In this document: positions 8,582-28,567 of the stretch, piece after piece
Position numbering within the stretch: the first letter of the stretch is position 1
Layout of the letters: each line of letters opens with the position of its first letter
Assembly: GCA_016839765.1 (NCBI GenBank)
Contig: JAEOTP010000069.1
Coordinates: 32,001 to 96,000 of the forward strand
Direction: 5' to 3'
DNA from: Promethearchaeota archaeon
Lineage (GTDB): Archaea; Asgardarchaeota; Lokiarchaeia; Sigyniarchaeales; SOKP01
Length of the DNA stretch: 64,000 bases
Notes under the pieces: model-generated
The model's input: the letters and a program-made list of their open reading frames with translations, nothing else
Databases searched by the model: none
What the model was told of the DNA's origin: nothing
Made by a program: the position numbers and the translations under genes

Positions 8582-10057
8582 TTAATAGCTCTTAGCGATA
8601 TAAACAGTACAGGATGCCGGTTTACCACAAATTAAACATGTTGCAAATTCGTGCTTTTCCTCATCGACTCTTTTACCTCTAACAAACCCCCCTATTTCTT
8701 TTTCAACCAGTTCCGCACACTGATAAGCATCCATATCGATTGAACAAAATCCACAACACACGATTTTTCCGTTATTAATCGCTTCTATGGCTGCATCTTT
8801 TTCATATACACATTCAACTTGAGACTCAAAATCAATAAGTGACTTCTCTTTTATTTCTTTCGTATAATTTGCAGCGATTTTATCAATCTTAGATTCTAAT
8901 TCTGCCTCTTTAATGGTAGATTTTTTATCATCATGTCGTTTAATGAGGATGATTTCTCCTTTTTCAATATCTTTAGGTCCAATTTCAATTCTGATAGGAA
9001 CACCCTTCAATTCCCAAAAATAGAACTTATTACCAACAGATTCATCAGAATCATCAATTTTCACTTTGAATTTATCTTTTAGGTGATTATATATTTCCTT
9101 AGCTTTCTTAATTACGATTTCTTCTTTACCTTTATAGATAATTGGAATAATAATTATTTGAATTGGTGCTAAATCAAAAGGCAAAATTAAACCTCTATCA
9201 TCTCCGAGATAAGCAATCATTGCCCCATATATTCTACTTATCGCTGGACCATAACATGTTTGATATCCATATTTTTCTTCACCATCTCTATCAATAAACT
9301 TTACATTAAAAGGTTTAGAGAAATTTTGACCAAGCAAATGAGTTGATGGCAATTGTAATACCTTTCCTGAACCCATTAAAGCATCTGCCGCATAAGTAGA
9401 AATAGCCCCGGGGAATTTATCCCATTGTGGTCTTTCGAAAAAAATTATAGGGATTCCAAACTCATCTTGTAGCATTTGATATGTTACTTCCATGTCTTCT
9501 TTTACTTGTATTAGGGCTCCTTCCATTGTTGAAAATACGTCATGACCTTCTATCCAATGAAATTCTCGTGCTCTAAAGAATGGTCTCGTCATTTTTCCTT
9601 CATAGCGCCATATTTGACATGAAAGATATCGTTTAAAAGGTAAATCCTTATAACTTCTAATCCATAATGAATACATTTTATATAAGGCAGTCTCACTTGT
9701 CGGCCGTAAGGCTAATCGCTCAGATAATTTACCTGAACTACCTGCTTCAGTGACCCAAAATACTTCTGGGGCGAACCCTTCTACATGCTCAGCTTCTAAT
9801 AAAAAGTTACTCTCCGGGATTAGTGAGGGCATAGTCAATGGAAGGTGTCCGTTTTTTTCCATTAACTCTTCATATTTAGCATACATTATTTTTATTGTTA
9901 TGGTAGCCCATTCTCTATAAACAACAAAACCCTTGATATTATATCGAATATCAGCTAACTCCGCCTTGTTGATTAATTCAGTATACCAAGCAGAAAAATC
10001 CTCTTCCTTAGAAACAGTAATTCCCGTTAAAGGAATCTCTTTTTTCTTTTTTGCCAT
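8582..10057 (-). CDS. proS: Proline--tRNA ligase (archaeal/eukaryotic type)
   Basis: EHVEGFAPE, LRPTSET, REFHWIEGH; C-terminal Zn domain ending AKSY. Confidence 0.97.
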   Translation of the reverse strand: MAKKKKEIPLTGITVSKEEDFSAWYTELINKAELADIRYNIKGFVVYREWATITIKIMYAKYEELMEKNGHLPLTMPSLIPESNFLLEAEHVEGFAPEVFWVTEAGSSGKLSERLALRPTSETALYKMYSLWIRSYKDLPFKRYLSCQIWRYEGKMTRPFFRAREFHWIEGHDVFSTMEGALIQVKEDMEVTYQMLQDEFGIPIIFFERPQWDKFPGAISTYAADALMGSGKVLQLPSTHLLGQNFSKPFNVKFIDRDGEEKYGYQTCYGPAISRIYGAMIAYLGDDRGLILPFDLAPIQIIIIPIIYKGKEEIVIKKAKEIYNHLKDKFKVKIDDSDESVGNKFYFWELKGVPIRIEIGPKDIEKGEIILIKRHDDKKSTIKEAELESKIDKIAANYTKEIKEKSLIDFESQVECVYEKDAAIEAINNGKIVCCGFCSIDMDAYQCAELVEKEIGGFVRGKRVDEEKHEFATCLICGKPASCTVYIAKSY

Positions 10058-10156: not shown

Positions 10157-10897
10157 TTAACCATTATCCAACAAAAGTTTTGCATCTGTTAGAATAAACC
10201 CAGAATGTATAAGGACCGTAAATTTTTTTGACTCCAAAAAATTTTTAATTTCTCTTCCTACCCTTTCAGCTTTTGCCTCATCTATTCCATGAGAATATTC
10301 GATAACTGATTTTACTGTCTTTAATAAATATTTATCACTTTCACGTGGAGTAGTGATGGAGATCGATTTTGCCCCAGCAATTTGACCAATTTTTTTTAGC
10401 TCTTGTTCTAAAGGACCAATTGCAAAAAATTCTCGATTTTTCCTTTCAATTTTTTCTGCCAATATCTTTTCTAAATTGTCTCTTGTCTGCTTATCATAAA
10501 AAGCTGTTAATTCTTGAGAGCAAATTTGCTTGTATTTTCCTGAAATTAATTTATCCTTTTCTTGTATAAACTTTATTAGGTTACCATAATACTTTTCATC
10601 GAGCTTCTGGAAGGTTTCTACATTCTTTACAAAATCAGTTAAATAATCAAGTAAGTCAAAATAGAATTTCAATTCAGACTTAATTTGTAATTTATCATTA
10701 ATCTCTTTTATTTCAGGATAATATTTCTTCAATATTTCATTAATCTGCTTGTTACACGCGGCGCATAATTTAGCGATCATATCTACACTGCTAATTGACC
10801 TCTTACGTACCTGTTCTAATACATCGTTATCTAATTTTGATAAATTCTCAAATATTTCAGTAATTTTCGCTCTATATTTTTTTTCAATATAAGACAT
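10157..10897 (-). CDS. Hypothetical protein (helical)
   Basis: 246-aa ORF with typical composition; no motif recognised. Confidence 0.7.
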   Translation of the reverse strand: MSYIEKKYRAKITEIFENLSKLDNDVLEQVRKRSISSVDMIAKLCAACNKQINEILKKYYPEIKEINDKLQIKSELKFYFDLLDYLTDFVKNVETFQKLDEKYYGNLIKFIQEKDKLISGKYKQICSQELTAFYDKQTRDNLEKILAEKIERKNREFFAIGPLEQELKKIGQIAGAKSISITTPRESDKYLLKTVKSVIEYSHGIDEAKAERVGREIKNFLESKKFTVLIHSGFILTDAKLLLDNG

Positions 10898-11037: not shown

Positions 11038-12243
11038 CTATAAACCAAAAAAAGTACCCACAGTCATAACTGTACCACTTATGAGAGAAACGGTAAAATT
11101 ATCATTTAAATTGAAAGAAAATAGTTCAACTAAAGGTGCTGTAATACCACCAATTACCAAGATTGGCAATGGAATATTTAAAGTAGTATATAGGACGAAC
11201 CCAACAATCAATACACAGCCACAATACGCTAATGTTCCCTCAAGCGTCTTATTAAAAATCTTGTGTCTTCCAAAGGCAAGACCGAAAAGTTTTGAAAAGA
11301 TATCACCAAAAATCAAGAAGGTTAGAGAGATTATTGCAATATCTTTTTTAAAAAGAAGTATAGCTATAAATGCAGCAACTAAAAATAAGGTCATAGATGA
11401 AAATTTTTTTTCCTCATGCTTTCTAAACAATGCTTTCACTTTGGTTGTTAATACCACATTTGTTTGATGATGGATAAATCTTATGATGTCAAGAAAGATA
11501 AAACATAAACCTACTATTCCTATTATAATAAGAGCTAATGTTTGTGTATAAAAAACGTAAAATAAAATAAATAATACGGCAAAAGGACGTGTTGCAGTTC
11601 GCCACCAATGAGCTTTAAAATTTTCATCTTGAATGGTCATTTTCTTCTTAATTATTACGTTATAAAGTTGTATAGAAACAATATATGTAAGGATTATGGT
11701 TAAGTAGATAGTGTATTGGACTTCAGGGTAATAAACAAAAAGAGTATAGGCAAGTACAGGAATAACAGTAATTCCTACAAGTTCTCCAGTTTTGGTTACA
11801 TATCCAAAAATAGCAACAATTATAAAGAGAAATAACAAGATAAAGAAAATTTCTAGGCCAAATGAAAAATAGCACACAAGATAATATAATAAAATGCCTG
11901 TGGAGGTGGCTACTCCTTGCCCTCCTCTGAACCTTAGATAAAATGGAAGTATGTGTCCGAGGATTGCAGCAAGTCCACTGATCTGTATGAAGATGTATTC
12001 CGCTCCAATCACTGCCGCGAGGAATATAGATAATAATCCTTTAATTGTATCATAAATAGCTGTTGGGATCGCGTATGAAAGACCCAATGTTTTATATACA
12101 TTTGAAGTACCAGCATTACGAGTTCCTACCTCTCTTATATCAATATTTTTCAATCTACCGAATATATATGCCGGATTAATTGTACCTATAAAATACCCTA
12201 TACATATACTTAAAATATTTACTAACAAAATAACACCATTCAC
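11038..12243 (-). CDS. PlsY-like glycerol-3-phosphate acyltransferase domain fused to a CTP-dependent lipid kinase domain (Sec59/Dgk1/Vte5 family), paralog 1
   Basis: N-half: GYFIGTI, DIREVGTRNAGTSN, DTIKG, GHILPFYLRFRGGQGVAT. C-half: FGDIFSKLFG..FGRHK...KTLEG and NDNF. Confidence 0.85.
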   Translation of the reverse strand: MNGVILLVNILSICIGYFIGTINPAYIFGRLKNIDIREVGTRNAGTSNVYKTLGLSYAIPTAIYDTIKGLLSIFLAAVIGAEYIFIQISGLAAILGHILPFYLRFRGGQGVATSTGILLYYLVCYFSFGLEIFFILLFLFIIVAIFGYVTKTGELVGITVIPVLAYTLFVYYPEVQYTIYLTIILTYIVSIQLYNVIIKKKMTIQDENFKAHWWRTATRPFAVLFILFYVFYTQTLALIIIGIVGLCFIFLDIIRFIHHQTNVVLTTKVKALFRKHEEKKFSSMTLFLVAAFIAILLFKKDIAIISLTFLIFGDIFSKLFGLAFGRHKIFNKTLEGTLAYCGCVLIVGFVLYTTLNIPLPILVIGGITAPLVELFSFNLNDNFTVSLISGTVMTVGTFFGL

Positions 12244-12392
12244 AGAAACACCGATTTGTGATAAGAATCTATTATTTATAAATATATTTAGGTTTACTTA
12301 CTTGTTGAGGAAGTAAATATTTTATTTCAATATTCCATATCGTTTTGAATTTCTAAATAATATTAATAGATTTTTCATCGATTTTAGTTAAA

Positions 12393-13601
12393 TTAAAAAC
12401 CGAAAAGGGTAATTACTGTCATAATGGTACCGCTTAATATGGGCACAGTGAAATTATCATCAACGCCTATAGGTAAAAATTCCGTAATTGTAGCAGTAAT
12501 TCCTCCCCATAAAAGCAAAATTAAAGGATAATTGAAGGAGGCAAACATTATATAAGCACAGATTAATACGCATCCAAAAAAAGAAAGCGATCCCTCTACA
12601 GTTTTATGGAAAAGCTTATGTTTTCCAAAAGCAAGTCCAAACACCTTACCAAACATGTCACAGAACGTTAAATAAATTATAGCAATAATAGCAATAGGCA
12701 TTTCAAATAAAAGAACGGTAACGAAAAACCCTATTAGAAATATTGTCATTGTAGAGAATTTCTTTTTCTCCTCTTTCCTAAAAATCTTTTTTATTCTCTC
12801 TGTGAAGAGTACATTTGCTTGTCGATGAAGGAATCTTACGAGATCTAAAGCGATAAAACATAATCCTACAATCCCGATAACAATAAGAGCCATTTCTTTT
12901 GAATAGCATATATAAAAAACAAGAAATAGCAAGGCAACTGGCCGTATTATGACCCGCCACCAATGGGATTTGAAAGTTTCATCTTCTATTCTCAGTTTTT
13001 TATCCTTTATAATATGATAAATGCAAAATGAAAAAATATAAGCAAGAATTATCCAAAAAAACAGATTATATTCAACATCTGGATAAAATACAAAGACAGT
13101 ATACCCAACAAGGGGGAGAATTATTGCTCCTAATATCTTTCCCGTTCTAGACACATATACAAAAATCGCAATAATTAATGCCATATAGAAAAAAAAGAAA
13201 AACATTTCAAGACCAACTAGTAGATAATTTACCATATACATAATTAAAATTCCAGTTGCACAAGCTAGCCCTCGTCCACCTTTAAAACGAATATAAAATG
13301 GAAATATATGCCCAGCAATTGCTGCCAATCCACTCAAATGAGCAAAAAAATAATCTGCTCCTAAGAAAAAAGCTAAAAAAATTACCCCAACACCTTTTAA
13401 TGTATCAAAAATTGCAGTTGGAATCGCGTAGGCTTTTCCTAAAGTACGAAAAGTATTCATCGTCCCAGCAATCCCTGTGCCTTGCTCTCTAATATCAATC
13501 TTTTTAATTGTTCTAACTAAAATATAGGCAGGTAGAATTGAACCAATTAAATACCCAATAACTGGGCTCAGTGTATTAATAAATATCGTATAAGGATCCA
13601 T
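12393..13601 (-). CDS. PlsY-like / CTP-dependent lipid kinase fusion, paralog 2
   Basis: GYLIGSI, DIREQGTGIAGTMN, DTLKG, GHIFPFYIRFKGGRGLA; DMFGKVFG..FGKHK...KTVEG and DDNF; colinear with paralog 1. Confidence 0.85.
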   Translation of the reverse strand: MDPYTIFINTLSPVIGYLIGSILPAYILVRTIKKIDIREQGTGIAGTMNTFRTLGKAYAIPTAIFDTLKGVGVIFLAFFLGADYFFAHLSGLAAIAGHIFPFYIRFKGGRGLACATGILIMYMVNYLLVGLEMFFFFFYMALIIAIFVYVSRTGKILGAIILPLVGYTVFVFYPDVEYNLFFWIILAYIFSFCIYHIIKDKKLRIEDETFKSHWWRVIIRPVALLFLVFYICYSKEMALIVIGIVGLCFIALDLVRFLHRQANVLFTERIKKIFRKEEKKKFSTMTIFLIGFFVTVLLFEMPIAIIAIIYLTFCDMFGKVFGLAFGKHKLFHKTVEGSLSFFGCVLICAYIMFASFNYPLILLLWGGITATITEFLPIGVDDNFTVPILSGTIMTVITLFGF

Positions 13602-13804: not shown

Positions 13805-14737
13805 TTAGCCTAATTTGCTTTTTATTTGCTTAGATCTGCTTCTTAATGTGACTTCGGTGACTTTAGCAATTTCTGAGACTTCTGCTTGAGTTTTACGACA
13901 ATTGCTTGACTTAGCAGCCATATAAATAACACTCGCTGCTAACCCTTTTGGATCTTTTCCCGTGCGAAGTAAGCCATTTTTGGACGCTTGGGCAAGCATG
14001 TTGATTGCCTTCTTTTGCACCTCCATAGGTAAACCCAAATCGTTACCGAACCGAAATACTAGCTGTTCAGCGGTGATCGGTTTATATCTAAGCGAAAGTT
14101 CCGGGAGAACCTCTTTAACAATCATCCCTAAGCTTCTATGGACAGTTCGCCTTGGAGTCATTGAAGAATCGCATACTTCCTCTAAGAGTCTAGGAAATTC
14201 ATGTACTCGGATCGCAGCGTATAACGCAGCGGCAATAAAACCATCAATTGATCGACCCATCGTTAACTTCTTCTTAGCAACAACTGAATAAATCTTCCAC
14301 GCAGTTTCTTTAATATACTCCGGGATATTCATCTTAGAAGTAAGCATCTTCAATTTTGGCTTTGCTTCCCAGAAATTTCTTTCAATACTGGAGATTAATG
14401 AATTCTGAATTTTAGAAAGTCTTGAGAATAATGTTTTACCCTTTGCATTGATGAGTCTACCCTTACTATCGATTTTGGTGTTTGGTAACATAGTTCTGGG
14501 CCCAAATTCCCTCCACCGCGGTTCAGTCCTTCTCCTCTTGTTCACCTCTTCTACAGTATATGCCCGTCTCTCATTTCCAACCAAATTGCGACTCTGAATC
14601 ATTCCGCAACTTAAACAAACGATATCTCCATCTTTGGACTCAATACACGGATTATCACAGCATTGCTCACTGCTACTTTTCTCATTTGAACTATCAGTTC
14701 TTTCCGAATAGTGCCGAAGTCTATCTTTGTAGCTCAT
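13805..14737 (-). CDS. tfb: Transcription initiation factor IIB (TFB)
   Basis: N-terminal Zn ribbon (CCDNPC...CLSCG), two cyclin repeats, GKDPKGLAA and VTEVTLRSR motifs. Confidence 0.95.
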   Translation of the reverse strand: MSYKDRLRHYSERTDSSNEKSSSEQCCDNPCIESKDGDIVCLSCGMIQSRNLVGNERRAYTVEEVNKRRRTEPRWREFGPRTMLPNTKIDSKGRLINAKGKTLFSRLSKIQNSLISSIERNFWEAKPKLKMLTSKMNIPEYIKETAWKIYSVVAKKKLTMGRSIDGFIAAALYAAIRVHEFPRLLEEVCDSSMTPRRTVHRSLGMIVKEVLPELSLRYKPITAEQLVFRFGNDLGLPMEVQKKAINMLAQASKNGLLRTGKDPKGLAASVIYMAAKSSNCRKTQAEVSEIAKVTEVTLRSRSKQIKSKLG

Positions 14738-14987: not shown

Positions 14988-16280
14988 TTACTTTTCTTTT
15001 AGAATAGGGATGATTTGGGGTCCATTTGGTAAAATTAGTATCCTAGCATTAGGACCATGTTTAGATAAGGACATTCGGATTGCAGCTTCTATTGATTCAG
15101 CGTATTTTAAGCCTATATTACCCAATCCATCTCTATTTATTGTAGAGATAACATATACTTCAGCTTTCATCATAATTCTTGTTAGAATTTGAATTTCCCA
15201 TATATCAATCATAGTTATTTCTTTAGATAATGCTTTTCGATAAATATCTTCAGGTTTTTTTTTAGAAAAAAGGAGATCTTTAAATTTATCATGACCAACG
15301 CCAATACCGTCAATACACTCATTTACAGAAATTATGGTCCCTCCCTCCTTAACAGCTATTTCTCCAATTCCCATACTCTTTACAGCTTGGTATAAATTAA
15401 GATCCAATGGGTATCCTCCATTTCCGCATATTACTATGTCATAGGGGTTATCAATCTCTTTAAATATGTAGTTTAATTGGTAATCAACCAATTTTTTATG
15501 CACTTCTTCTAAATCACCAGCTGCAACTTGAGTAATTCTATGTTCCTCGTTAATGCAAACATTTATTACAAAATCTACACCCGATAACCTAGCAATTTCT
15601 GTAGAATTTTTTGCCATTGGATTATTTTCATATATTCCAAATCTTGAATAAGGAGAATCGATATTTTCAACAGAATGATTAGCTTGAATTGTTAACGCTC
15701 CAGAAATTCCTGGTACTATAGATTTCCTGCCGCCAGAAAATCCAAAAAAGAAGTGAGGTTCAACATAGCCAGTTAAAATCTTTAAGTCGCTCTCATAATA
15801 ATATTTATTTATATAAATTGGTACTCCATCTTCGGTATCTCCTAAATAAATAAGAGAATCATTATCTCTAGCGTTATGATTAATATATTTAATTCTATTT
15901 AAAAGATCTGTTCCTATTATTCTTTCTAATTCATAATCATACGTTGTTCGATGAAGTCCAGTTGCAATTAATACTCCTATTTGATTATCTTTTATACCAT
16001 ATTCATTTAATTCAGCTATTAGAGCTTCAAGAATGATATTCGAAGGAACTGGTCTTGTAGCATCAGATACTACAATACAAATTTGATTTAACTTTTTCCT
16101 TTGATCAACGATTTCCTTTAGTGGAGGGGTCCCTATAGGATTATTAATCCAATTTTTAATGACATTTTTTGGATTTTCAATTACAACTTGCTTTATTGGA
16201 TGAATTATTGTTGCATTCCAATTCGGATCAAGAGAAAATTCTAAGCTTGTTTTACCATAGTCAAATTTCACATTTCTCAC
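14988..16280 (-). CDS. larA: Nickel pincer-dependent lactate racemase family (LarA)
   Basis: SDATRP, ATGLHR, EPHFFFGFSGGRKS and GGYPLDLNLYQAVK motifs. Confidence 0.88.
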   Translation of the reverse strand: MRNVKFDYGKTSLEFSLDPNWNATIIHPIKQVVIENPKNVIKNWINNPIGTPPLKEIVDQRKKLNQICIVVSDATRPVPSNIILEALIAELNEYGIKDNQIGVLIATGLHRTTYDYELERIIGTDLLNRIKYINHNARDNDSLIYLGDTEDGVPIYINKYYYESDLKILTGYVEPHFFFGFSGGRKSIVPGISGALTIQANHSVENIDSPYSRFGIYENNPMAKNSTEIARLSGVDFVINVCINEEHRITQVAAGDLEEVHKKLVDYQLNYIFKEIDNPYDIVICGNGGYPLDLNLYQAVKSMGIGEIAVKEGGTIISVNECIDGIGVGHDKFKDLLFSKKKPEDIYRKALSKEITMIDIWEIQILTRIMMKAEVYVISTINRDGLGNIGLKYAESIEAAIRMSLSKHGPNARILILPNGPQIIPILKEK

Positions 16281-17344: not shown

Positions 17345-17764
17345 TTGACAAAAATACTTAAGGATTTATGGGTGCTTACATCTACTGGGGCTACATTATT
17401 TTCCAGAGTGCTGGATAAAGCGAAGCTGAATCCCCAACTATTTGGAGCTTTGATGTCTGCTTTAAATACATTTGCAGAAAAACTTTCTGACGGAGGAATA
17501 TCTAATTTTGAAATGAGAAACATTAGGTTTGTAGTTGTAAGAAGAAGAGATTTTCTTTTCGTTGGCACAGCTCTCAATAAAATTAAAGAGAAAAAAGTAG
17601 TTGAAGAATTAAAAGTAATTAGTGATAGATTTTTTGATGTATATCCCTCGGATGTTTTGCTAAATTGGGATGGTGATATAAATATTTTTTCTAATTTTGG
17701 GCAATTTATAGAGAATTCTTTAGAAAAACCAATTGACAAATTAAAGGAAGCATTTTGGTCTTAA
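17345..17764 (+). CDS. Longin-like domain protein (Asgard eukaryote-signature type)
   Basis: LWVLTSTGATLFSR...LFGALMSALNTFAEKL...FVV...FLFVG, a longin beta-beta-alpha-beta-beta-beta-alpha pattern. Confidence 0.65.
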   Translation: MTKILKDLWVLTSTGATLFSRVLDKAKLNPQLFGALMSALNTFAEKLSDGGISNFEMRNIRFVVVRRRDFLFVGTALNKIKEKKVVEELKVISDRFFDVYPSDVLLNWDGDINIFSNFGQFIENSLEKPIDKLKEAFWS

Positions 17765-18355: not shown

Positions 18356-19825
18356 TTGATATTTGATGTTATCGTAATTGGTGGCGGAGTAATTGGTTGC
18401 TGCATAGCACGTACTTTATCTAAATATGATTTAAATATTTGTTTAATAGAAAAAGAAGCAGATATTGCAAGTGGTACAACAAAAGGTAATTCTGGCGTTG
18501 TTCATGCAGGATATGGAGCTCCAAGGGAGCATACCAGGAGACAGTTTTGTATAAAAGGTAATAAACTCTATACTCAAGCAGTGGAAGAATTAAATTTTCC
18601 TTTTCAGAGGATAGGTTCTTTTGTCGTAGCTGTAGAAGATAGTCAAATAAAATTTCTTGAAGAGGAACGGAAACGGGGAATAGAAGATGGTATTCCGGGA
18701 CTGGAGCTAATATTAGATAAAGAAAGAATTAAATACATGGAACCAAATCTTACAGATGATGTTATCGGCGTGCTTCATGCACCCACAGCAGGCATTGTTA
18801 GTCCTTATGAAATGACTTTTGCTCTTGCTGAAAATGCTGCGACTAATGGAGTTAAATTCTTTCTAAATGCAAAAGTTAAAAAAATCACACATCAAGATTA
18901 TCTTTTTAAATTAAAAACTAAGGCCGGTGAATTTCAAGGACGAAATGTAATAAATGCGGCAGGGCTTTACGCTGCCAAAATCTCAAAAATGGTTGGTTTA
19001 GATTATTTTGAATTAATGCCAAGGAAAGGGGAATATATTTTATTTGATAGAAATGCCATGCATCTAAATAAAGTTCTATTTCCTATTCCTACTAAGGTAT
19101 CCAAGGGGATCCTAGTATGCCCTACTATCCATGGCAATACATTTGTAGGACCTAATGCTCAAAATATCACAGATAAGAAAGATATTTCAACCACCGAAGC
19201 AGGATTAAAAGAAATTATTGAGGGGGGTAGAGGATTAGTACCTAATTTACCATTACGAGCTTCAATAAAAAATTTTGCCGGACTGAGAGCTGTACCTGAT
19301 ACGTATGACTTTATTATTGATAATACAGATGTTTATGGATTTATCAATGTAGCTGGTATATTATCACCTGGGTTAACTTCATGTTATGCAATAGTTGAGA
19401 GAGTAGAAGAATATCTTGAATTACTAGGAGTAGAATTAAAAACTAAAGATGATTATAATCCTATACGACCAAAACCAGAAAGATTTAAAGATTTTTCTAA
19501 AGAGCAATTAGATGGGAAAATTAAAGAAGATCCCGCATGGGCTAGAATAATTTGCCGATGTGAAATGATTCCAGAAAAGGAAATTGTCGATGCAATTCAT
19601 AATCCTGTGGGAGCTAAAACTGTTGATGGAATAAAATTCCGTTGTAGACCAGGCATGGGGCGCTGTGGAGGAGGCTTTTGCCGCCCACGAGTCATAGAAA
19701 TATTATCTCGCGAATTGGGCATAACCTATCAAGAAGTAACAAAACGAGGCGAAGACACTTATTTTTTAATCGGTAAAACTAAAGATATTCAGTTGAGAAA
19801 TATTGAAGAGGGGGTTAAAGAATGA
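18356..19825 (+). CDS. FAD-dependent oxidoreductase, GlpA/LhgO-like (probable glycerol-3-phosphate dehydrogenase), with C-terminal BFD-like [2Fe-2S] domain
   Basis: GGGVIG, TTKGNSGVVHAG, SPGLTS; CRCE...RCRPGMGRCGGGFC. Confidence 0.85.
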   Translation: MIFDVIVIGGGVIGCCIARTLSKYDLNICLIEKEADIASGTTKGNSGVVHAGYGAPREHTRRQFCIKGNKLYTQAVEELNFPFQRIGSFVVAVEDSQIKFLEEERKRGIEDGIPGLELILDKERIKYMEPNLTDDVIGVLHAPTAGIVSPYEMTFALAENAATNGVKFFLNAKVKKITHQDYLFKLKTKAGEFQGRNVINAAGLYAAKISKMVGLDYFELMPRKGEYILFDRNAMHLNKVLFPIPTKVSKGILVCPTIHGNTFVGPNAQNITDKKDISTTEAGLKEIIEGGRGLVPNLPLRASIKNFAGLRAVPDTYDFIIDNTDVYGFINVAGILSPGLTSCYAIVERVEEYLELLGVELKTKDDYNPIRPKPERFKDFSKEQLDGKIKEDPAWARIICRCEMIPEKEIVDAIHNPVGAKTVDGIKFRCRPGMGRCGGGFCRPRVIEILSRELGITYQEVTKRGEDTYFLIGKTKDIQLRNIEEGVKE

Positions 19826-21120
19826 ATAAATACAAAGTCGATGTGGCTGTGATTGGTTCGGGAGCAGCGGGTTTAGCTTCTGCAATTGAAGTTAAAAAGG
19901 CAGAATTAAGTGTTTTAATAATAGAAAGAGATCACGAGTTAGGTGGAATTACCCTACAATGCATTCATAATGGATTTGGATTAAAAGAATTTGAAGAAGA
20001 ATTAACTGGTCCGGAATATATTCAGAGATTTATTAATGAAGTTAAAGAATTACAAATCCCTTATCTTTTAGATACAATGGTATTTGAAATCAATAAGGAT
20101 AAACTTGTTTATGCCGTTAATAAGCAAGAAGGTCTTATTGAAGTTGAAGCAAAAGCAATTATTTTAGCGATGGGTTGTAGAGAAAGAACAAGAGGAGCTA
20201 TTAATATTCCTGGTTTCAGGCCTTCTGGAATATATACTGCCGGCCAAGCCCAAAGATTTGTAAATATTGAAGGTTACTTACCAGGAAATACCTTTGTTAT
20301 CTTAGGAAGTGGAGATATCGGAATGATAATGGCACGTAGATTAACATGGGAAGGATGCAAAGTAAAAGCTGTTGTAGAGATTTTACCCTACGTAAGTGGC
20401 TTATTGAGAAATCAAGTACAGTGTCTAGAGGATTATGAAATACCTCTTATTACAAACTATACCGTTACCAAAATTCATGGTAAAGATAGAATTAAAGGGG
20501 TTACAATATCAAAAGTTGATAGAAATTTTGATCGTATTGTTGGTTCAGAAAAATTTATTGAATGCGACACGTTACTTTTGTCAGTTGGTTTAATACCGGA
20601 AAATGAATTAACATTACAAGCAGGAGCCGAACTTTCTAAAAATGGTGGTCCAATAGTTGATAATAATTTAGAAACTACTATTAAAGGCATTTTTGCTTGT
20701 GGTAATGTATTACAAGTCCATGATTTAGTTGATTTGGTTACAGCAGAAGCTAAACGCGCAGGAAAAATAGCTTCTGAATATGTTAAAAGTAGAAGTGATA
20801 AGGAAATTAAAGCCCGTGAAACGATTAAATTAGTCTCTGGAGATAATGTTAATTATGTTAAACCTGATTTAATTAATAAGAATGATCTATCAAATGATAT
20901 AATCTTCACTTTTAGGGTAAGTTATCCAGATAGAAGGGTTCTAATACAATTTAAAGATGAAGAAAATAGCATCATCTATAAAAGAAAGAAAATCTATGTT
21001 ATACCAAGTGAGATGGTCGAATTGAGTATAAATTTGGAAAAACAAGGTATAAACCCTGAATGTAAAACAATAACAGTTGAAGTAATTCCTCGTCCAGAGG
21101 TATTAATAGAGGAGGATTAA
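19822..21120 (+). CDS. NAD(P)/FAD-dependent oxidoreductase, partner of the GlpA-like protein
   Basis: GSGAAG, QCIHNGFG, LTGPEY, GSGDIG and GNVLQVHDLVD motifs; ATGA overlap with the upstream gene. Confidence 0.88.
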   Translation: MNKYKVDVAVIGSGAAGLASAIEVKKAELSVLIIERDHELGGITLQCIHNGFGLKEFEEELTGPEYIQRFINEVKELQIPYLLDTMVFEINKDKLVYAVNKQEGLIEVEAKAIILAMGCRERTRGAINIPGFRPSGIYTAGQAQRFVNIEGYLPGNTFVILGSGDIGMIMARRLTWEGCKVKAVVEILPYVSGLLRNQVQCLEDYEIPLITNYTVTKIHGKDRIKGVTISKVDRNFDRIVGSEKFIECDTLLLSVGLIPENELTLQAGAELSKNGGPIVDNNLETTIKGIFACGNVLQVHDLVDLVTAEAKRAGKIASEYVKSRSDKEIKARETIKLVSGDNVNYVKPDLINKNDLSNDIIFTFRVSYPDRRVLIQFKDEENSIIYKRKKIYVIPSEMVELSINLEKQGINPECKTITVEVIPRPEVLIEED

Positions 21121-21136
21121 TAAAAGGTGATAAACT

Positions 21137-21517
21137 ATGTCAGAACTTAGTACAATAAAAATAATTCGTTGCATTGTATGTCCAACAGGCTGTGAGATAA
21201 AAGTTAAAAAAGGGGGTGTTGAAAAAGTTACATTTGATGGTTATACTTGCGAGCGGGGACTTGAATATGCTCAGCAAGAGTATTATGAACCAAAAAGAAT
21301 TCTTACTACAACTATGAGAATCGAAAAGGGGTTATTACCTTTAATTCCCGTAAGAACGGATAAAGCTATCCTTAAAGAAAAATTAAAAGATGTCTTAGAA
21401 GAAATTGCGGAAATGAAATTAAAAGCCCCAATTAAAATGGGAGATATCTTAATTGAAAACGTCCTTGGATTAGGAGCTAATATTATAGCAAGTCGGAATT
21501 TAAACAAAATAGATTAA
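21137..21517 (+). CDS. DUF1667 / molybdopterin-oxidoreductase-like small Fe-S protein
   Basis: CIVCPTGC...TCERG..YA..E...PKRILTTT; third gene of the conserved triad. Confidence 0.85.
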   Translation: MSELSTIKIIRCIVCPTGCEIKVKKGGVEKVTFDGYTCERGLEYAQQEYYEPKRILTTTMRIEKGLLPLIPVRTDKAILKEKLKDVLEEIAEMKLKAPIKMGDILIENVLGLGANIIASRNLNKID

Positions 21518-21620: not shown

Positions 21621-22271
21621 TTGGATATACCAAAATTCTCAATGTTAGATTCTTTAATTATCAAAATATTACTTATTATTAGTTTCTTCTTTTTTGGGTA
21701 TAATCTTACATATATCATTCTTTTCAAAAGAAGGCATAAGAACAACCAAAGTAATAATCAGATTAATAATAAACTAAAGGAAACAAGATTATTTGCAAGA
21801 CTGGGCATTCATATTATCAATATTTTCATATTTTTATGTTGTTTAAATATTTTTATATATAATTATTGGATAATAATATTTCCAAGAATTAACTTATTTT
21901 TTAGTAATATAGTACAAATCATTGGTTTTACTTTTATTATAGGGGGTAATATCACCTTATTATTAGCCTATAGGAAATTAGGAATTTATTGGGATTACCC
22001 CATTGACGGTTTGAAAAAAAAGAAAAAATTAGTAAAATCAGGTATTTATGCTAAAATTAGACATCCAATTTACCTTTCATTTAACATTTTGTGTATTGGT
22101 TTTAATATGATTTTATTAGACTGGTTTTTATTAATTCTATATATAATTGGAGCAATTGGACTGTATTTTCAGGCAATTGATGAAGAAACGATTCTATTAG
22201 AATTTTTTGGACAAGAATATGATACTTATATGAAAAGTACTGGTAGATTTTTTCCTAAATTCAAAAAATAA
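21621..22271 (+). CDS. Isoprenylcysteine carboxyl methyltransferase / PEMT-like membrane methyltransferase
   Basis: LVKSGIYAKIRHPIY and EE..L...FGQEY..Y...TGRFFP motifs. Confidence 0.85.
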   Translation: MDIPKFSMLDSLIIKILLIISFFFFGYNLTYIILFKRRHKNNQSNNQINNKLKETRLFARLGIHIINIFIFLCCLNIFIYNYWIIIFPRINLFFSNIVQIIGFTFIIGGNITLLLAYRKLGIYWDYPIDGLKKKKKLVKSGIYAKIRHPIYLSFNILCIGFNMILLDWFLLILYIIGAIGLYFQAIDEETILLEFFGQEYDTYMKSTGRFFPKFKK

Positions 22272-24905: not shown

Positions 24906-26741
24906 TTATTTCTGCTTTTTCTTTTTGAATGGATCTTTAAATTGCATTTTATATAAATGATTATAAAGACCATTTAATTCAACTAATTCTTGATGTGACC
25001 CCTCTTCAACTATTTTCCCCTTATCTAAAACAATAATACGGTCTGAATTTATTATTGTAGATAATCTATGTGCTATAGAGATGCTTGTACGCCCTTTTAA
25101 TAAAGTTTCTAGGGCTTGTTGTATTAGAAGTTCACTGTATGGGTCGATAGATGAGGTTGCTTCATCTAGGATTAGAATAGGTGGATCACCTATTAATGCT
25201 CTTGCAAATGCAATCAATTGTCTTTGACCTTCAGATAATTTACTACCCCTTTCTCCTACGATTGTATCATAGCCTCTCTCAAGATTTACTATAAATTCAT
25301 GAGCATTTACCTTTTTAGCTGTTTCTACAATTTGATCTTCAGTGGCGTTTAAATTTCCGTATCTTATGTTTTCCATAATAGTACCAGAAAATAGAAAATT
25401 CTCTTGGAGGACAATTCCCATCTTATTTCTTAGACTTTTAAGATTTATATCCTTTAAATTAATAGTATCAACATCTATCCCTCCTTTTGTCGGATCATAA
25501 AATCGAGACAGTAATTTAACGAATGTACTCTTCCCTGCACCTGTATAACCAACTAGTGCTAATCTTTCTTTTGCTTTTACTTTTAAATTGATACTTTCTA
25601 ATACTGGAACATTTTCTTCATACGAAAAATCCACATTTTTGTATTCAATTATTCCTTTTACATTTTTTAAAACGAGAGCATCTTGTATTTCTTTTATTGA
25701 TGGTTCTTCATCTAATAAACCAATAATTCTAGCTCCAGCTGCAATTGAATTTTGTAAAAGTGTTAAAAAACTAATTAATGATAATAAAGGCTCAAAGAAC
25801 ATAAAAATATAAAAAATAAACGCTAATAAAGTGCCTTGTGAGAGTGACCCTTCTCGAATTAAAAAGCCTGCAGTAAAAAATACAACACTAATTCCTAAAG
25901 TTATGACTAATAGACTAATTCCGGGTATAAATGCGAGCAACTTTGCGGCTTTCATGGTCGTTTGTTTTTCTAGCTCTGTGGTGTTTTTAAATTCGTTATA
26001 ATTTTCCTCCTCGACAGCAAAGGATTGAATCGTTCGCATTCCCATAATAGACTCATCCAAATTGCTGGTTACGTCAGCAACTCTTTCTCTTAAATCCTTG
26101 AAGTATTTTCTAGCTTTTTTTAAAAGAATAATTCCTAATCCGAAAACTATAGGTACAATCAAGAATATTACTAGTGTTAAACCAGGACTTAATATAATCA
26201 TAAAAAGTAAAGCTCCAAGCACTAAAAAGATATTACTCAGAGAAATTAATAATCCTGATTGTATTAATTGTTGGATAGTATTTACATCACCAGTGAGATA
26301 ATTGATCTTTTTTCCTGTTGTACGGTTGGGAGTTTCGTGATAATCTAAGCCTAATTTTTGAAATTTAATAAAAAGTTCTGCTCTTAAATTGAACATTGTA
26401 ATTGTTGCTAATTTTTGTATAATATAATTTTGGGCTATCCTTATAAGAACTCCAGAAATTGTCAAAACAAAAAAAATAATCCCAAGAATAATAACTACAT
26501 CAATATTACCTTCAGTTGCACCTATTCCACCACCCAAACCATCATCCACCAATGATTTAAATACTAAGGGAGTAAACCAATTAAACGCTATATTTAAAAT
26601 GATAAATATGGTAAGAGGGAAGAACAGCTTTCTATTTTTTTTTCCAATATACCGAATGAATCTCCCTAATATTTTTAAAGTCCCTTTAATATCTCTCTTT
26701 TCCTTATGTTCTTCATTTACTTCTTTTTTTTCTCTCGACAC
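24906..26741 (-). CDS. ABC exporter, heterodimer subunit with consensus catalytic residues
   Basis: TM domain plus GYTGAGKS, LSEGQRQ, ILDEATS and AHRLS. Confidence 0.93.
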   Translation of the reverse strand: MSREKKEVNEEHKEKRDIKGTLKILGRFIRYIGKKNRKLFFPLTIFIILNIAFNWFTPLVFKSLVDDGLGGGIGATEGNIDVVIILGIIFFVLTISGVLIRIAQNYIIQKLATITMFNLRAELFIKFQKLGLDYHETPNRTTGKKINYLTGDVNTIQQLIQSGLLISLSNIFLVLGALLFMIILSPGLTLVIFLIVPIVFGLGIILLKKARKYFKDLRERVADVTSNLDESIMGMRTIQSFAVEEENYNEFKNTTELEKQTTMKAAKLLAFIPGISLLVITLGISVVFFTAGFLIREGSLSQGTLLAFIFYIFMFFEPLLSLISFLTLLQNSIAAGARIIGLLDEEPSIKEIQDALVLKNVKGIIEYKNVDFSYEENVPVLESINLKVKAKERLALVGYTGAGKSTFVKLLSRFYDPTKGGIDVDTINLKDINLKSLRNKMGIVLQENFLFSGTIMENIRYGNLNATEDQIVETAKKVNAHEFIVNLERGYDTIVGERGSKLSEGQRQLIAFARALIGDPPILILDEATSSIDPYSELLIQQALETLLKGRTSISIAHRLSTIINSDRIIVLDKGKIVEEGSHQELVELNGLYNHLYKMQFKDPFKKKKQK

Positions 26742-28567
26742 TATGCTCGTTCCTCGACTTTTAGTGTTAAATATAAATTTCTATAAATCCCTTCTTGACT
26801 CATTAATTCTTCATGGGTGCCTAATTGGGCAATTTCTCCGTTATTTAAGATTAATATTCTATCAGCATTTCTCACACTTGATAATCTTTGAGTAATAAGA
26901 AAGGTGGTAGAATCTTTGAAAACTTCTTTGAAATTCTTTTGGATTCTATATTCAGTATCAACATCGACACTACTAGTAGCGTCATCTAGAATCAAGATTT
27001 TGGGTTTAATAGCTAAAGCTCTAGCAATTGAAATTCTTTGCTTTTGACCCCCTGATAGAGTTGTACCTCTTTCACTTACCTTAGTTTCATACTTTTCGGG
27101 TAAATCTTCTTCAATAAATTGGTAAATGTTAGCAAATTTTGCTGCATTTTTTATGTCTTCATTCTTTATAGACTTATTACCAAACGCAATATTTTCCTTA
27201 ATTGAGCAGGAAAATAAAAATCTTTCTTGTGAGACAAAACCGATTTGTTTTCTCAGAGATTTGAAGCTAACATCCTTTATGTTAATACCATCTATAAGAA
27301 CTTCTCCCCTAGATACATCATAAAACCTAGGAATTAATTTAACCAATGCTGATTTTCCAGAGCCGGTTGCTCCTAATATTGCAATATTTTCACCCGGCTT
27401 AATTTTCAAATTTATATTTTTTAATACAAAATTTTTCTTAATTTCATTAAAATTAAAAAATACATTTCTAAATTCAACTTCTCCCTTAATGGTGGGCATT
27501 TCAAGAGCATCTTCTTTTTCTTTGACGATAATCTTTGAATTCAAAATATGAACCACTCTATCAGACGTTTCTGATATTTGGGGCATATTTCCAAAAAATC
27601 TTGAGATAAAGTACAAAGGTTCTATTGAAAAATTCAAAACCATTACAAATGCGAACAAATCTCCAAAAGTGATATCATTATTGAGGACAAATAATCCTCC
27701 AAGAAGTAATACAATAAGAAAAGCAATATTATCAATTAAACGAATTATTGGATCAAAGCTTGATTGTAGTTTTATAATGTCCATTGAATCTTTATAGTAT
27801 TTCTCATTATATTGTGAAAATTTATTAATTTCATAAGATTCTCTTCCAAAAGATTTCACAACAGTAATTCCTTGAACATTCTCTTGAATGTTGTTGGTCA
27901 AATCTGCATAAGTTTCCCTTGATTTTTTAAAGACGGGCCTAAATTTCTTTCTGAAAATAAGTAATACATAAAATAACGCAGGTGACACAATTATAACAAA
28001 GAAAGCTAATTCAATATCGATTATAAAAAGAATTGCAAAGCTAAATGAAAAAGTAAAGAGTTGTCGTATAAAAAGTTGAAGATTATTTCCCAAAAATTCC
28101 TTAAGTAAATTTACATCACTTGTTGTTCGAGACAGAAGTTCTCCGGTCTTGTGTTCATCTAACCATCCCCAAGACATCTGCTGTATTGTAGAAAAAAGGT
28201 CGTTTCTTAAATTATAAATTACACTTGCTCCCATCCATCTATTAATATAAATTCTTATTCCATTAATGATGCCAACAAGAGATTGAATAATTACTATGGT
28301 AAAAAATATAGGAAAAACATTTTCAATAAGAATACTCGGATTTACTAAGATATCCATTGCTGGTCCTAGAAATAAAGGAAATGTGAGGTATAAGATAGAT
28401 TGAACTACTCCTAAAATAGCTATAAAGATGAAGAGCTTTTTAAATTCCCAAAGATAGGATAGAATTTGCTTTACTGATGATTTATATCTATGAGTGAGAA
28501 ATCTGTTTCTACGTTCTAAGAATTCAATTTTTTTTCGCATATTGAATAATTTGAAAGTTTTAATCAC
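26741..28567 (-). CDS. ABC exporter, heterodimer subunit with degenerate site (TM287/288-like pair)
   Basis: GATGSGKS, LSGGQKQ, ILDDATS (E to D) and TQRLS (H to Q). Confidence 0.93.
   Translation of the reverse strand: MIKTFKLFNMRKKIEFLERRNRFLTHRYKSSVKQILSYLWEFKKLFIFIAILGVVQSILYLTFPLFLGPAMDILVNPSILIENVFPIFFTIVIIQSLVGIINGIRIYINRWMGASVIYNLRNDLFSTIQQMSWGWLDEHKTGELLSRTTSDVNLLKEFLGNNLQLFIRQLFTFSFSFAILFIIDIELAFFVIIVSPALFYVLLIFRKKFRPVFKKSRETYADLTNNIQENVQGITVVKSFGRESYEINKFSQYNEKYYKDSMDIIKLQSSFDPIIRLIDNIAFLIVLLLGGLFVLNNDITFGDLFAFVMVLNFSIEPLYFISRFFGNMPQISETSDRVVHILNSKIIVKEKEDALEMPTIKGEVEFRNVFFNFNEIKKNFVLKNINLKIKPGENIAILGATGSGKSALVKLIPRFYDVSRGEVLIDGINIKDVSFKSLRKQIGFVSQERFLFSCSIKENIAFGNKSIKNEDIKNAAKFANIYQFIEEDLPEKYETKVSERGTTLSGGQKQRISIARALAIKPKILILDDATSSVDVDTEYRIQKNFKEVFKDSTTFLITQRLSSVRNADRILILNNGEIAQLGTHEELMSQEGIYRNLYLTLKVEERA

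Follow-up and report, generated by a model that had tools for sequence, protein, structure and literature searches.

Tandem fusions of a PlsY-like domain with a CTP-type kinase-like domain in one family of Lokiarchaeia: a candidate two-step membrane lipid enzyme

The plsY gene of Lokiarchaeota is cited as a sign of possible bacterial-type lipids in Asgard archaea. Published accounts describe a plsY that is not accompanied by plsX in Lokiarchaeota and further Asgard archaea, take it for a transfer from bacteria, and leave the function unsettled; in their accessible portions, these papers neither mention a fused kinase half or a lost glycerol-3-phosphate (G3P) clamp nor treat the Loki gene as an acquisition distinct from the stand-alone PlsY in other Asgards (PMC6431249, PMC6737245, PMC9385802, PMC13400652). 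The subject here is a tandem pair of genes, P0001 and P0002, within 64,000 nucleotides of a Promethearchaeota archaeon of the class Lokiarchaeia (assembly GCA_016839765.1, contig JAEOTP010000069.1, positions 32,001 to 96,000), a stretch termed the window. Each gene joins a PlsY-like domain to a domain resembling the cytidine triphosphate (CTP)-dependent lipid kinases. This PlsY-kinase fusion is real, intact, and conserved, and constitutes a widespread, putative two-domain lipid enzyme. Neither the fusion nor its eroded pocket nor its His-to-Arg kinase was described in any paper that a literature search of limited coverage brought up.

The closest described relative of the N-terminal half is PlsY (PF02660), known from structures of the Aquifex aeolicus enzyme (5XJ5-5XJ9; PMC5700162). 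The fusion shares its seven-helix fold, its D-x-R-x-x-G-x-x-N-x-G start, and the acyl-phosphate hole formed by H92, the G-G-x-G loop, and the beginning of helix 4. In the Aquifex enzyme, the acyl-phosphate site comprises the K104-A107 backbone, H92, A40/T41, and N37 for the oxyanion, with Thr41 binding the acyl carbonyl, and the G3P pocket comprises S35, R45, K104, N180, S142, and H177, a set termed “highly invariable” (PMC5700162). The activity left in mutants is 6% for R45K, 7% for K104A, 0.3% for H177F, 0.8% for H177I, and 2% for N180Q (PMC5700162, Table 2), and substitutions equal or similar to those in the fusion each leave 0.3-25%. Unlike PlsY, the fusion has this clamp largely replaced, a variable T41, a second membrane domain, and a host with neither PlsX nor Fak.

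The C-terminal half is closest to the kinases Sec59/DOLK, Dgk1, VTE5, FOLK, and PolK (PMC2459266, PMC9782597, bioRxiv 10.1101/2023.07.17.549440). Compared by motif, it resembles them in a CdsA-like fold, an N-terminal Arg, an Asp in the D-x6-G-x3-G helix that never varies, the K-[TS]-x-E-G string, and a terminal D-N, and departs from them in having R-x-x-x-R for R-K-x-x-H, a new Lys four residues past the Asp in long forms, and a PlsY-like partner. In PfPolK, R-K-x-x-H has been modelled as a clamp around the substrate hydroxyl. The Dgk1 substitution D177A indicates that the Asp is needed for activity (PMC2459266), a residue matched to the Asp of the fusion by motif only. The third comparison is FakA/FakB of Firmicutes (PMC9136124), with which the fusion would share the logic of converting free fatty acid to acyl-phosphate for a membrane acyltransferase without PlsX. 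Fak, however, is a soluble, two-component, ATP-dependent system of unrelated folds, whereas the fusion is one membrane polypeptide and probably CTP-dependent.

P0001 (11038..12243, minus strand) encodes 401 amino acids from a GTG start, and P0002 (12393..13601, minus strand), the more diverged copy of the same architecture, encodes 402. An earlier note on this DNA had described two colinear paralogues of about 400 residues, and so they are: the proteins are 54% identical over 396 residues, and their genes lie 149 bp apart with a GC content of 0.32, similar to that of the window (0.29). On the minus strand, the PlsY-like domain covers 11650..12228 in P0001 (about residues 6-198) and 12990..13586 in P0002 (about residues 6-204), and the kinase-like domain covers 11044..11625 (about residues 207-400) and 12396..12980 (about residues 208-402), respectively.

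Profile and structural comparisons bear out the assignment of the N-terminal half to the PlsY family. Both copies match PF02660 in a Pfam profile search with E about 1e-33 (1.6e-33 for P0001) and score 106 (P0001) and 107 bits against the PlsY equivalog TIGR00023, under its cut-off of 137 bits. Aquifex PlsY 5xj5 is matched by sequence with E 4e-14. The AlphaFold model (mean predicted local distance difference test, pLDDT, 84) places residues 6-204 on 5xj5 with Z 15.8 and a root-mean-square deviation (rmsd) of 3.4 over 179 aligned residues, and the P0002 domain shows seven long helices, as in the Aquifex enzyme.

The two halves of the PlsY active site have fared differently. The acyl-phosphate hole (H92, G102-G103-x-G105, and the V106/A107 backbone) is present in both paralogues, the loop reading GGQG in P0001 and GGRG in P0002. 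In Aquifex numbering, P0001 retains N37 and H92 and carries S35T, T41S, R45K, K104Q, H177V, and N180Q; P0002 retains R45 and H92 and carries S35T, N37I, T41M, K104R, H177F, and N180C. The clamp S35/R45/K104/S142/H177/N180 consequently reads T/K/Q/K/V/Q in P0001 and T/R/R/R/F/C in P0002. Motif 3 (H-x2-N) appears in neither protein in any last-helix register tried, the register of the fused domain being taken from sequence alignment only. The loop sequences and the missing motif 3 are as first described; the claim that motif 1 is kept holds in part, with Asn37 replaced by Ile in P0002 and Arg45 by Lys in P0001.

The same division runs through the family, for which residues were counted in 61 Lokiarchaeia copies, 128 other long fusions (mostly bacterial), and 21 short fusions. 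H92 is kept in all 61 Lokiarchaeia copies and 126 of the 128 other long fusions, and together with the glycines G102, G103, and G105 in 61/61 and about 125/128. The clamp positions have drifted: K104 is Gln in 55 of the 61 Lokiarchaeia copies, R45 remains Arg in only 16 of them, H177 is replaced by hydrophobic or small residues with no His among those listed, N180 is Gly or Ser in Lokiarchaeia and Asn in 47/128 other long fusions, and S35 is Thr or Asp (Asp in 13/61 and 35/128). Near the position of S142, a basic residue is conserved in the fusions. The short fusions (330-350 amino acids) are without the helices that carry motif 3. By comparison, six stand-alone PlsY from fusion-bearing bacteria have H177, N180, R45, and K104 throughout, and most stand-alone Asgard PlsY keep the G3P clamp. 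These six served as control in place of a PlsY set gathered alongside the short fusions, which was dropped as a divergent paralogue family that does not keep R45 and S142.

These sequence patterns suggest that the PlsY-like domain can still take up a lipid phosphate but has lost the ability to bind G3P; P0002 may have a weak or altered transferase half. The original proposal of G3P as the acceptor is not supported, given a clamp that has decayed throughout the family and is for the most part missing from the short forms. Its appeal to G3P as a particular stereoisomer fares no better: bacterial PlsY uses glycerol-1-phosphate (G1P) and G3P alike (PMC13400652), and a G3P route would therefore not follow even from an intact PlsY.

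PlsY paralogues that lack motif 3 also occur unfused. Candidatus Heimdallarchaeum (G039, G082) has additional PlsY paralogues with GGRG and no H-x2-N (L119, L120, L122) beside a motif-complete copy. Two bacterial genomes (G005, G001) hold multiple stand-alone paralogues without motif 3 (L149-L152), of which one adjoins a family-2 glycosyltransferase and two come after patatin, FakA, and DegV genes. The motif-3-less bacterial paralogues suggest a wider set of PlsY-like enzymes with acceptors other than G3P.

The C-terminal half is more distant from described families. It was not seen in whole-protein Pfam, NCBIfam, and Foldseek searches, and the PF01148 matches, obtained from the cut domain only, are weak (E 0.003 for P0001; E<=0.01 in 33/83 relatives, best 1e-8). 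Residues 219-402 of the full-length model lie on CdsA with Z 9.6, and the domain modelled alone (pLDDT 91.9) matches CdsA 4q2e (Z 10.5, rmsd 7.0, 174 aligned) and CarS 5guf (Z 7.8). These Z scores are middling for helical proteins and are backed by motif and profile matches, including one to the CdsA profile (E 0.011). The domain model also has an Atlas template modelling (TM) score of 0.84 to a diacylglycerol (DAG)/polyprenol kinase cluster. Since a structure search turned up no member of this kinase family among solved structures, CdsA is simply the nearest available fold. The CdsA signature K-D...G-H-G-G..D-R-x-D had no match in the fusion C-domains tested, and the CarS motif D-Q-L-D is absent from them.

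Motif conservation identifies the domain more closely. It carries the string D-x6-G-x3-G-x6-K-T-x-E-G followed by E and D-N, in P0001 as R215-x3-R219, D314, K318, K332-T-x-E335-G, E373, and D381-N382, and in P0002 as R216-x3-R220, D315, K319, K333-T-x-E336-G, E374, and D382-N383. In P0002 numbering, D315, G322, G326, K333, E336, G337, E374, D382, and N383 do not vary among the 61 Lokiarchaeia copies, and all but E374, which is Asp there, recur in seven stand-alone kinases. The CTP-kinase signature of the earlier note is thus present, together with a change that it had not remarked. All seven stand-alone kinases, three of them from this genome, have an N-terminal R-K-x-x-H, and all 61 Lokiarchaeia copies have R-[VT]-x-x-R. 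Arg occupies the kinase His position in 206 of 210 fusions (61/61 Lokiarchaeia, 127/128 long, and 18/21 short, the rest Lys) vs 0/7 stand-alone kinases, and likewise in the reversed and split forms described below. In long fusions, the Lys of R-K-x-x-H is mostly lost and a new Lys stands at 319, four residues after the Asp (61/61 Lokiarchaeia, 107/128 others). The conserved residues and the substitution point to an enzyme that is active but takes a different acceptor, probably an anionic one.

Functional coupling of the PlsY-like and kinase halves is supported, because they are paired in four architectures: long, short, reversed, and two-gene (split). The long form comprises about 60 full-length clusters at 50% identity; among the short forms, two named matches are Woesearchaeota; and the reversed order was seen once (P0234). 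In the bacterial split form (L153:1539-2679 and L158-L163), the PlsY-like gene overlaps or precedes the kinase gene, and at six of six close loci the gene before an R-K-x-x-R kinase gene encodes a PlsY-like protein whose motif 3 is eroded, these six representing one lineage of 48-100% identity. Split and reversed PlsY halves group apart from fused ones with weak support; this tree and that of the fusions discussed below are quick trees with Shimodaira-Hasegawa-like approximate likelihood ratio test (SH-aLRT) values and midpoint roots.

The gene inventory of the host, whose genome is 95.9% complete, bears on the source of acyl-phosphate. A search of this genome found no PlsX, DegV, Dak2, or acetate/butyrate kinase, and no Pta, the sole PF01515 match being MtxX; the Dak2 and DegV domains are absent from the fusion proteins as well. 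The suggestion that any acyl transfer here would be independent of PlsX is supported in so far as neither plsX nor fakA/fakB was found in the genome. Across the class, DegV occurs in 0/91 genomes. The picture differs in five other Asgard families, Ca. Heimdallarchaeum among them, where 16/16 genomes that carry a stand-alone PlsY have DegV and Dak2 and no PlsX, and non-Loki Asgard genomes with stand-alone PlsY have 2-24 DegV matches each. Three genomes of one such family (G192, G222, G234) hold a co-oriented fakA-fakB-plsY run (L154:1216-3914, L155:2281-5060), consisting in L154 and L155 of a fakA-like gene (Dak2 plus FakA middle domain), degV, and a motif-complete plsY. Given the 16/16 association of intact PlsY with DegV and Dak2 elsewhere, the kinase domain appears where Fak is missing. 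With no PlsX, Fak, or other source found, the fused PlsY-like domain has no known donor unless its partner makes acyl-phosphate.

Other lipid genes of the host include geranylgeranylglyceryl phosphate synthase (GGGPS), found despite the lack of a match to EgsA-type glycerol-1-phosphate dehydrogenase (G1PDH) in this genome and in 24/26 genomes of the genus, a separate CarS-like gene (L009), and the three R-K-x-x-H kinases. The check for plsC raised by the earlier note yields a 561-residue protein with two PlsC domains, each with H-x4-D (L003:487-2169, G000 C61), and a weaker third PlsC-like gene. PlsC-type matches, nearly always in the tandem form, occur in 64/71 genomes of the family, and the tandem protein could acylate two positions from acyl-CoA without PlsY.

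The reading tentatively preferred, at slightly less than an even chance, is a two-step membrane enzyme for salvage or remodelling of lipids, whose kinase half would produce acyl-phosphate as the donor with which the PlsY-like half acylates an acceptor other than G3P. The C-terminal domain would take phosphate from CTP, or possibly another nucleoside triphosphate, and put it on an anionic lipid. The likeliest such acceptor is a fatty-acid carboxylate, bound by the Arg that stands in for the kinase His, and the result would be acyl-phosphate in the membrane. This labile product would pass to the conserved phosphate hole of the N-terminal domain, from which the acyl chain would be transferred to an acceptor other than glycerol phosphate; candidates are a neutral alcohol, a sugar, a lipid hydroxyl, or an amine. 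Acyl-phosphate synthesis from nucleoside triphosphates is uphill and its product labile, which would favour fusion of the two halves. That the kinase half makes acyl-phosphate at all, an idea already present in the earlier note and supported here as a possibility, is somewhat probable. A fuller claim, that the His-to-Arg kinase is a membrane-embedded, CTP-driven fatty-acid kinase forming a third acyl-phosphate route beside PlsX and FakAB, its product being channelled into an acyltransferase of PlsY descent that serves a new acceptor, is possible but falls short of even. The alternative of isoprenol as a kinase substrate feeding PlsY finds no support, as isoprenol-phosphate would give the PlsY domain nothing to transfer. 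A possible source of fatty acids lies in a 576-590-residue membrane protein of many helices whose C-terminal domain is an alpha/beta esterase (L021:4102-5829; L141), found within one or two genes of the fusion in 28 of the 32 Loki loci that hold it; it could supply fatty acids, although the proximity is synteny among kin.

Several observations weigh against this two-step enzyme. We know of no carboxylate-using member of the CTP-dependent lipid kinase family. The characterised members all phosphorylate alcohols, namely DAG, dolichol, phytol, and farnesol (PMC2459266, PMC9782597), and an Arg in place of the kinase His could serve a phosphate acceptor just as well. Of the Lokiarchaeia copies, 19/61 have lost Asn37, P0002 among them, though it is kept in 110/128 other long fusions, and the Thr41 position is variable across the fusion family, with an invariant Thr one position earlier; the T41 position varies in intact Asgard PlsY too. 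The contrast between Fak and fusion rests on few independent lineages, DegV is present in 2/6 fusion-bearing bacteria, and the bacterial fusion loci show no conserved lipid gene context. At one of these loci, an acetate/butyrate-kinase-family gene lies directly upstream of the fusion (L095:4890-5957), a single case and an anecdote.

Precedent in the kinase family is one argument for another explanation, in which the C-terminal half is a lipid-alcohol or lipid-phosphate kinase (for DAG, archaeol, monoacylglycerol, prenol, or prenyl phosphate) serving salvage and the PlsY-like half is a non-catalytic module that binds or presents lipid phosphate. In the Atlas, “diacylglycerol/polyprenol kinase family” is among the clusters that come nearest; the PlsY half is without T41 and the clamp, and in some copies without N37, while its phosphate hole can hold any lipid phosphate; and short forms occur in lineages thought to scavenge lipids. 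This reading is nonetheless rather unlikely, as the host already has its three stand-alone kinases, the His-to-Arg change tracks PlsY coupling with no exception in the sets examined, the retention of N37 in most long fusions and of H92 nearly everywhere exceeds what a dead domain would show, and, with a stable monoester as product, there would be less to gain from fusing the two halves repeatedly. A cytidylyltransferase resembling CdsA or CarS, activating a phosphatidate-like lipid to its cytidine diphosphate (CDP) form, would account for the best structural matches and the CdsA profile match, and Arg suits a phosphate acceptor; it is very improbable in view of the missing CdsA and CarS signatures, the separate CarS-like gene, the terminal D-N common to the stand-alone kinases, and the standing of CdsA as just the nearest solved fold.

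Acceptance of G3P or G1P by a remodelled PlsY pocket, with acyl-phosphate from the kinase giving lysophosphatidic acid and, with PlsC, ester or chimeric lipids, is distinctly unlikely. The host does lack PlsX and Fak, carries the tandem PlsC protein and a GlpA-like cluster 5 kb from the fusion, and has no EgsA/G1PDH match, and among long fusions N180 is kept in 47/128 with the basic residue near S142 conserved. Yet each paralogue carries several changes of the kind that each leave little activity in Aquifex PlsY (PMC5700162), S35 has become Asp in 13/61 and 35/128 copies, an intact PlsY and PlsX are retained in 6/6 fusion-bearing bacteria, and about 40% of the family's genomes are without the fusion whereas tandem PlsC is present in 64/71. 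Least probable of all, and hardly to be expected, is that the pair runs backwards in lipid breakdown, with ester phosphorolysis giving acyl-phosphate whose phosphate passes to CDP and conserves energy. The hosts are mostly sediment heterotrophs and the membrane esterase often lies within two genes in Loki loci; however, the reaction of ester, phosphate, and CDP to acid, alcohol, and CTP is uphill by ~10 kJ/mol, as estimated from standard values, and the esterase lies elsewhere in the host genome (G000 C4:24884-26653) and is absent from the bacterial loci seen.

The distribution of the fusion is patchy. Among 251 Asgard genomes searched, full-length matches occur in 36/62 of the host's family and in 0/189 others, and those of the family without the fusion include several near-complete genomes; the best reading is that the gene is dispensable in this family. 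The genomes that hold close relatives, of 91-96% identity, mostly bear the labels Promethearchaeota or Lokiarchaeota, in a named-genome sample biased to Lokiarchaeia. A wider Asgard spread indicated by NCBI labels (Hodarchaeota, Odinarchaeota, Thorarchaeota) was rejected, being contradicted by gene order, tree position, and the phylum scan. Among the bacteria named as carriers are WOR-3, KSB1, Calditrichaeota, Aminicenantes, and Poribacteria, and the six bacterial genomes checked all keep PlsX beside an intact stand-alone PlsY, so that the fusion is accessory there. In the midpoint-rooted tree, the copies from Lokiarchaeia group as a single clade (SH-aLRT 97) within the bacterial sequences, for which transfer of a bacterial gene into one Lokiarchaeia family, followed by duplications, would be the simplest reading. 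The profile search and taxonomic survey proposed at the outset thus gave a strong PF02660 and a weak PF01148 match, and a fusion confined among Asgards to one family and otherwise found in bacteria and Woesearchaeota-labelled short forms. The link drawn to the lipid divide at eukaryogenesis is weak for a gene so nested and absent from the other Asgard families searched.

Copy number was surveyed at 80 loci, some of which end near the gene: 61 show one copy, 14 two, 4 three, and 1 four. An obligate heterodimer of P0001 and P0002, as had been suggested, is unlikely with a single copy at 61/80 loci. Orthologues of both types occur together in at least three further genomes, and in the tree the stem that leads to the P0002 type is long, which fits functional divergence rather than an obligate heterodimer, and the two copies probably differ in substrate. 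Arrays of three or four diverged paralogues occur at L064, L055, L075, L086, and L059, where some copies are GGKG again.

These results affect how the archaeal gene is used in the lipid debate. In the family examined, “plsY” is half of a fusion, has no glycerol-phosphate pocket, is patchy, and looks acquired from bacteria, and for these reasons is not to be counted as the first step of bacterial lipid synthesis; the fusion is probably an accessory, bacteria-derived enzyme. It would have been acquired separately from the stand-alone PlsY that other Asgard groups carry, and the intact PlsY with FakA/FakB of those groups is the better lead on Asgard ester lipids. If the two-step reading is true, some Lokiarchaeia, deep-branching bacteria, and DPANN/CPR (Candidate Phyla Radiation) cells could build ester lipids from scavenged fatty acids, the kinase half would explain the donor source for the PlsY-like domain in cells without PlsX or Fak, and a Dgk1/Sec59-type membrane kinase able, after a single change in its active site, to phosphorylate fatty acids would represent a novel activity.

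The surroundings of the pair are partly conserved. Upstream lies a transcription factor B gene (13805..14737, minus strand), a synteny marker in 53/80 loci with no functional link claimed, and downstream a gene for a conserved 246-residue helical protein (10157..10897, minus strand; 57/80 loci), after which comes a prolyl-tRNA synthetase-like gene (8582-10057). A promoter and terminator scan at the fusion genes, which does not cover archaeal promoters, gave nothing above chance. The GlpA-like cluster (18356-21517, plus strand) consists of a GlpA-like flavin adenine dinucleotide (FAD) oxidoreductase, a pyridine-nucleotide oxidoreductase, and a DUF1667 gene, a probable G3P dehydrogenase cluster that is near the fusion in only 10/80 loci. 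Elsewhere, the window holds a lactate-racemase-family gene (14988-16280, minus strand), a Longin-domain protein of the Asgard eukaryote-signature type (17345-17764, plus strand; Fuz_longin_1, E 1.7e-5), an ICMT/PEMT-like membrane methyltransferase (21621-22271, plus strand), and a heterodimeric ATP-binding cassette (ABC) exporter pair (24906-28567, minus strand).

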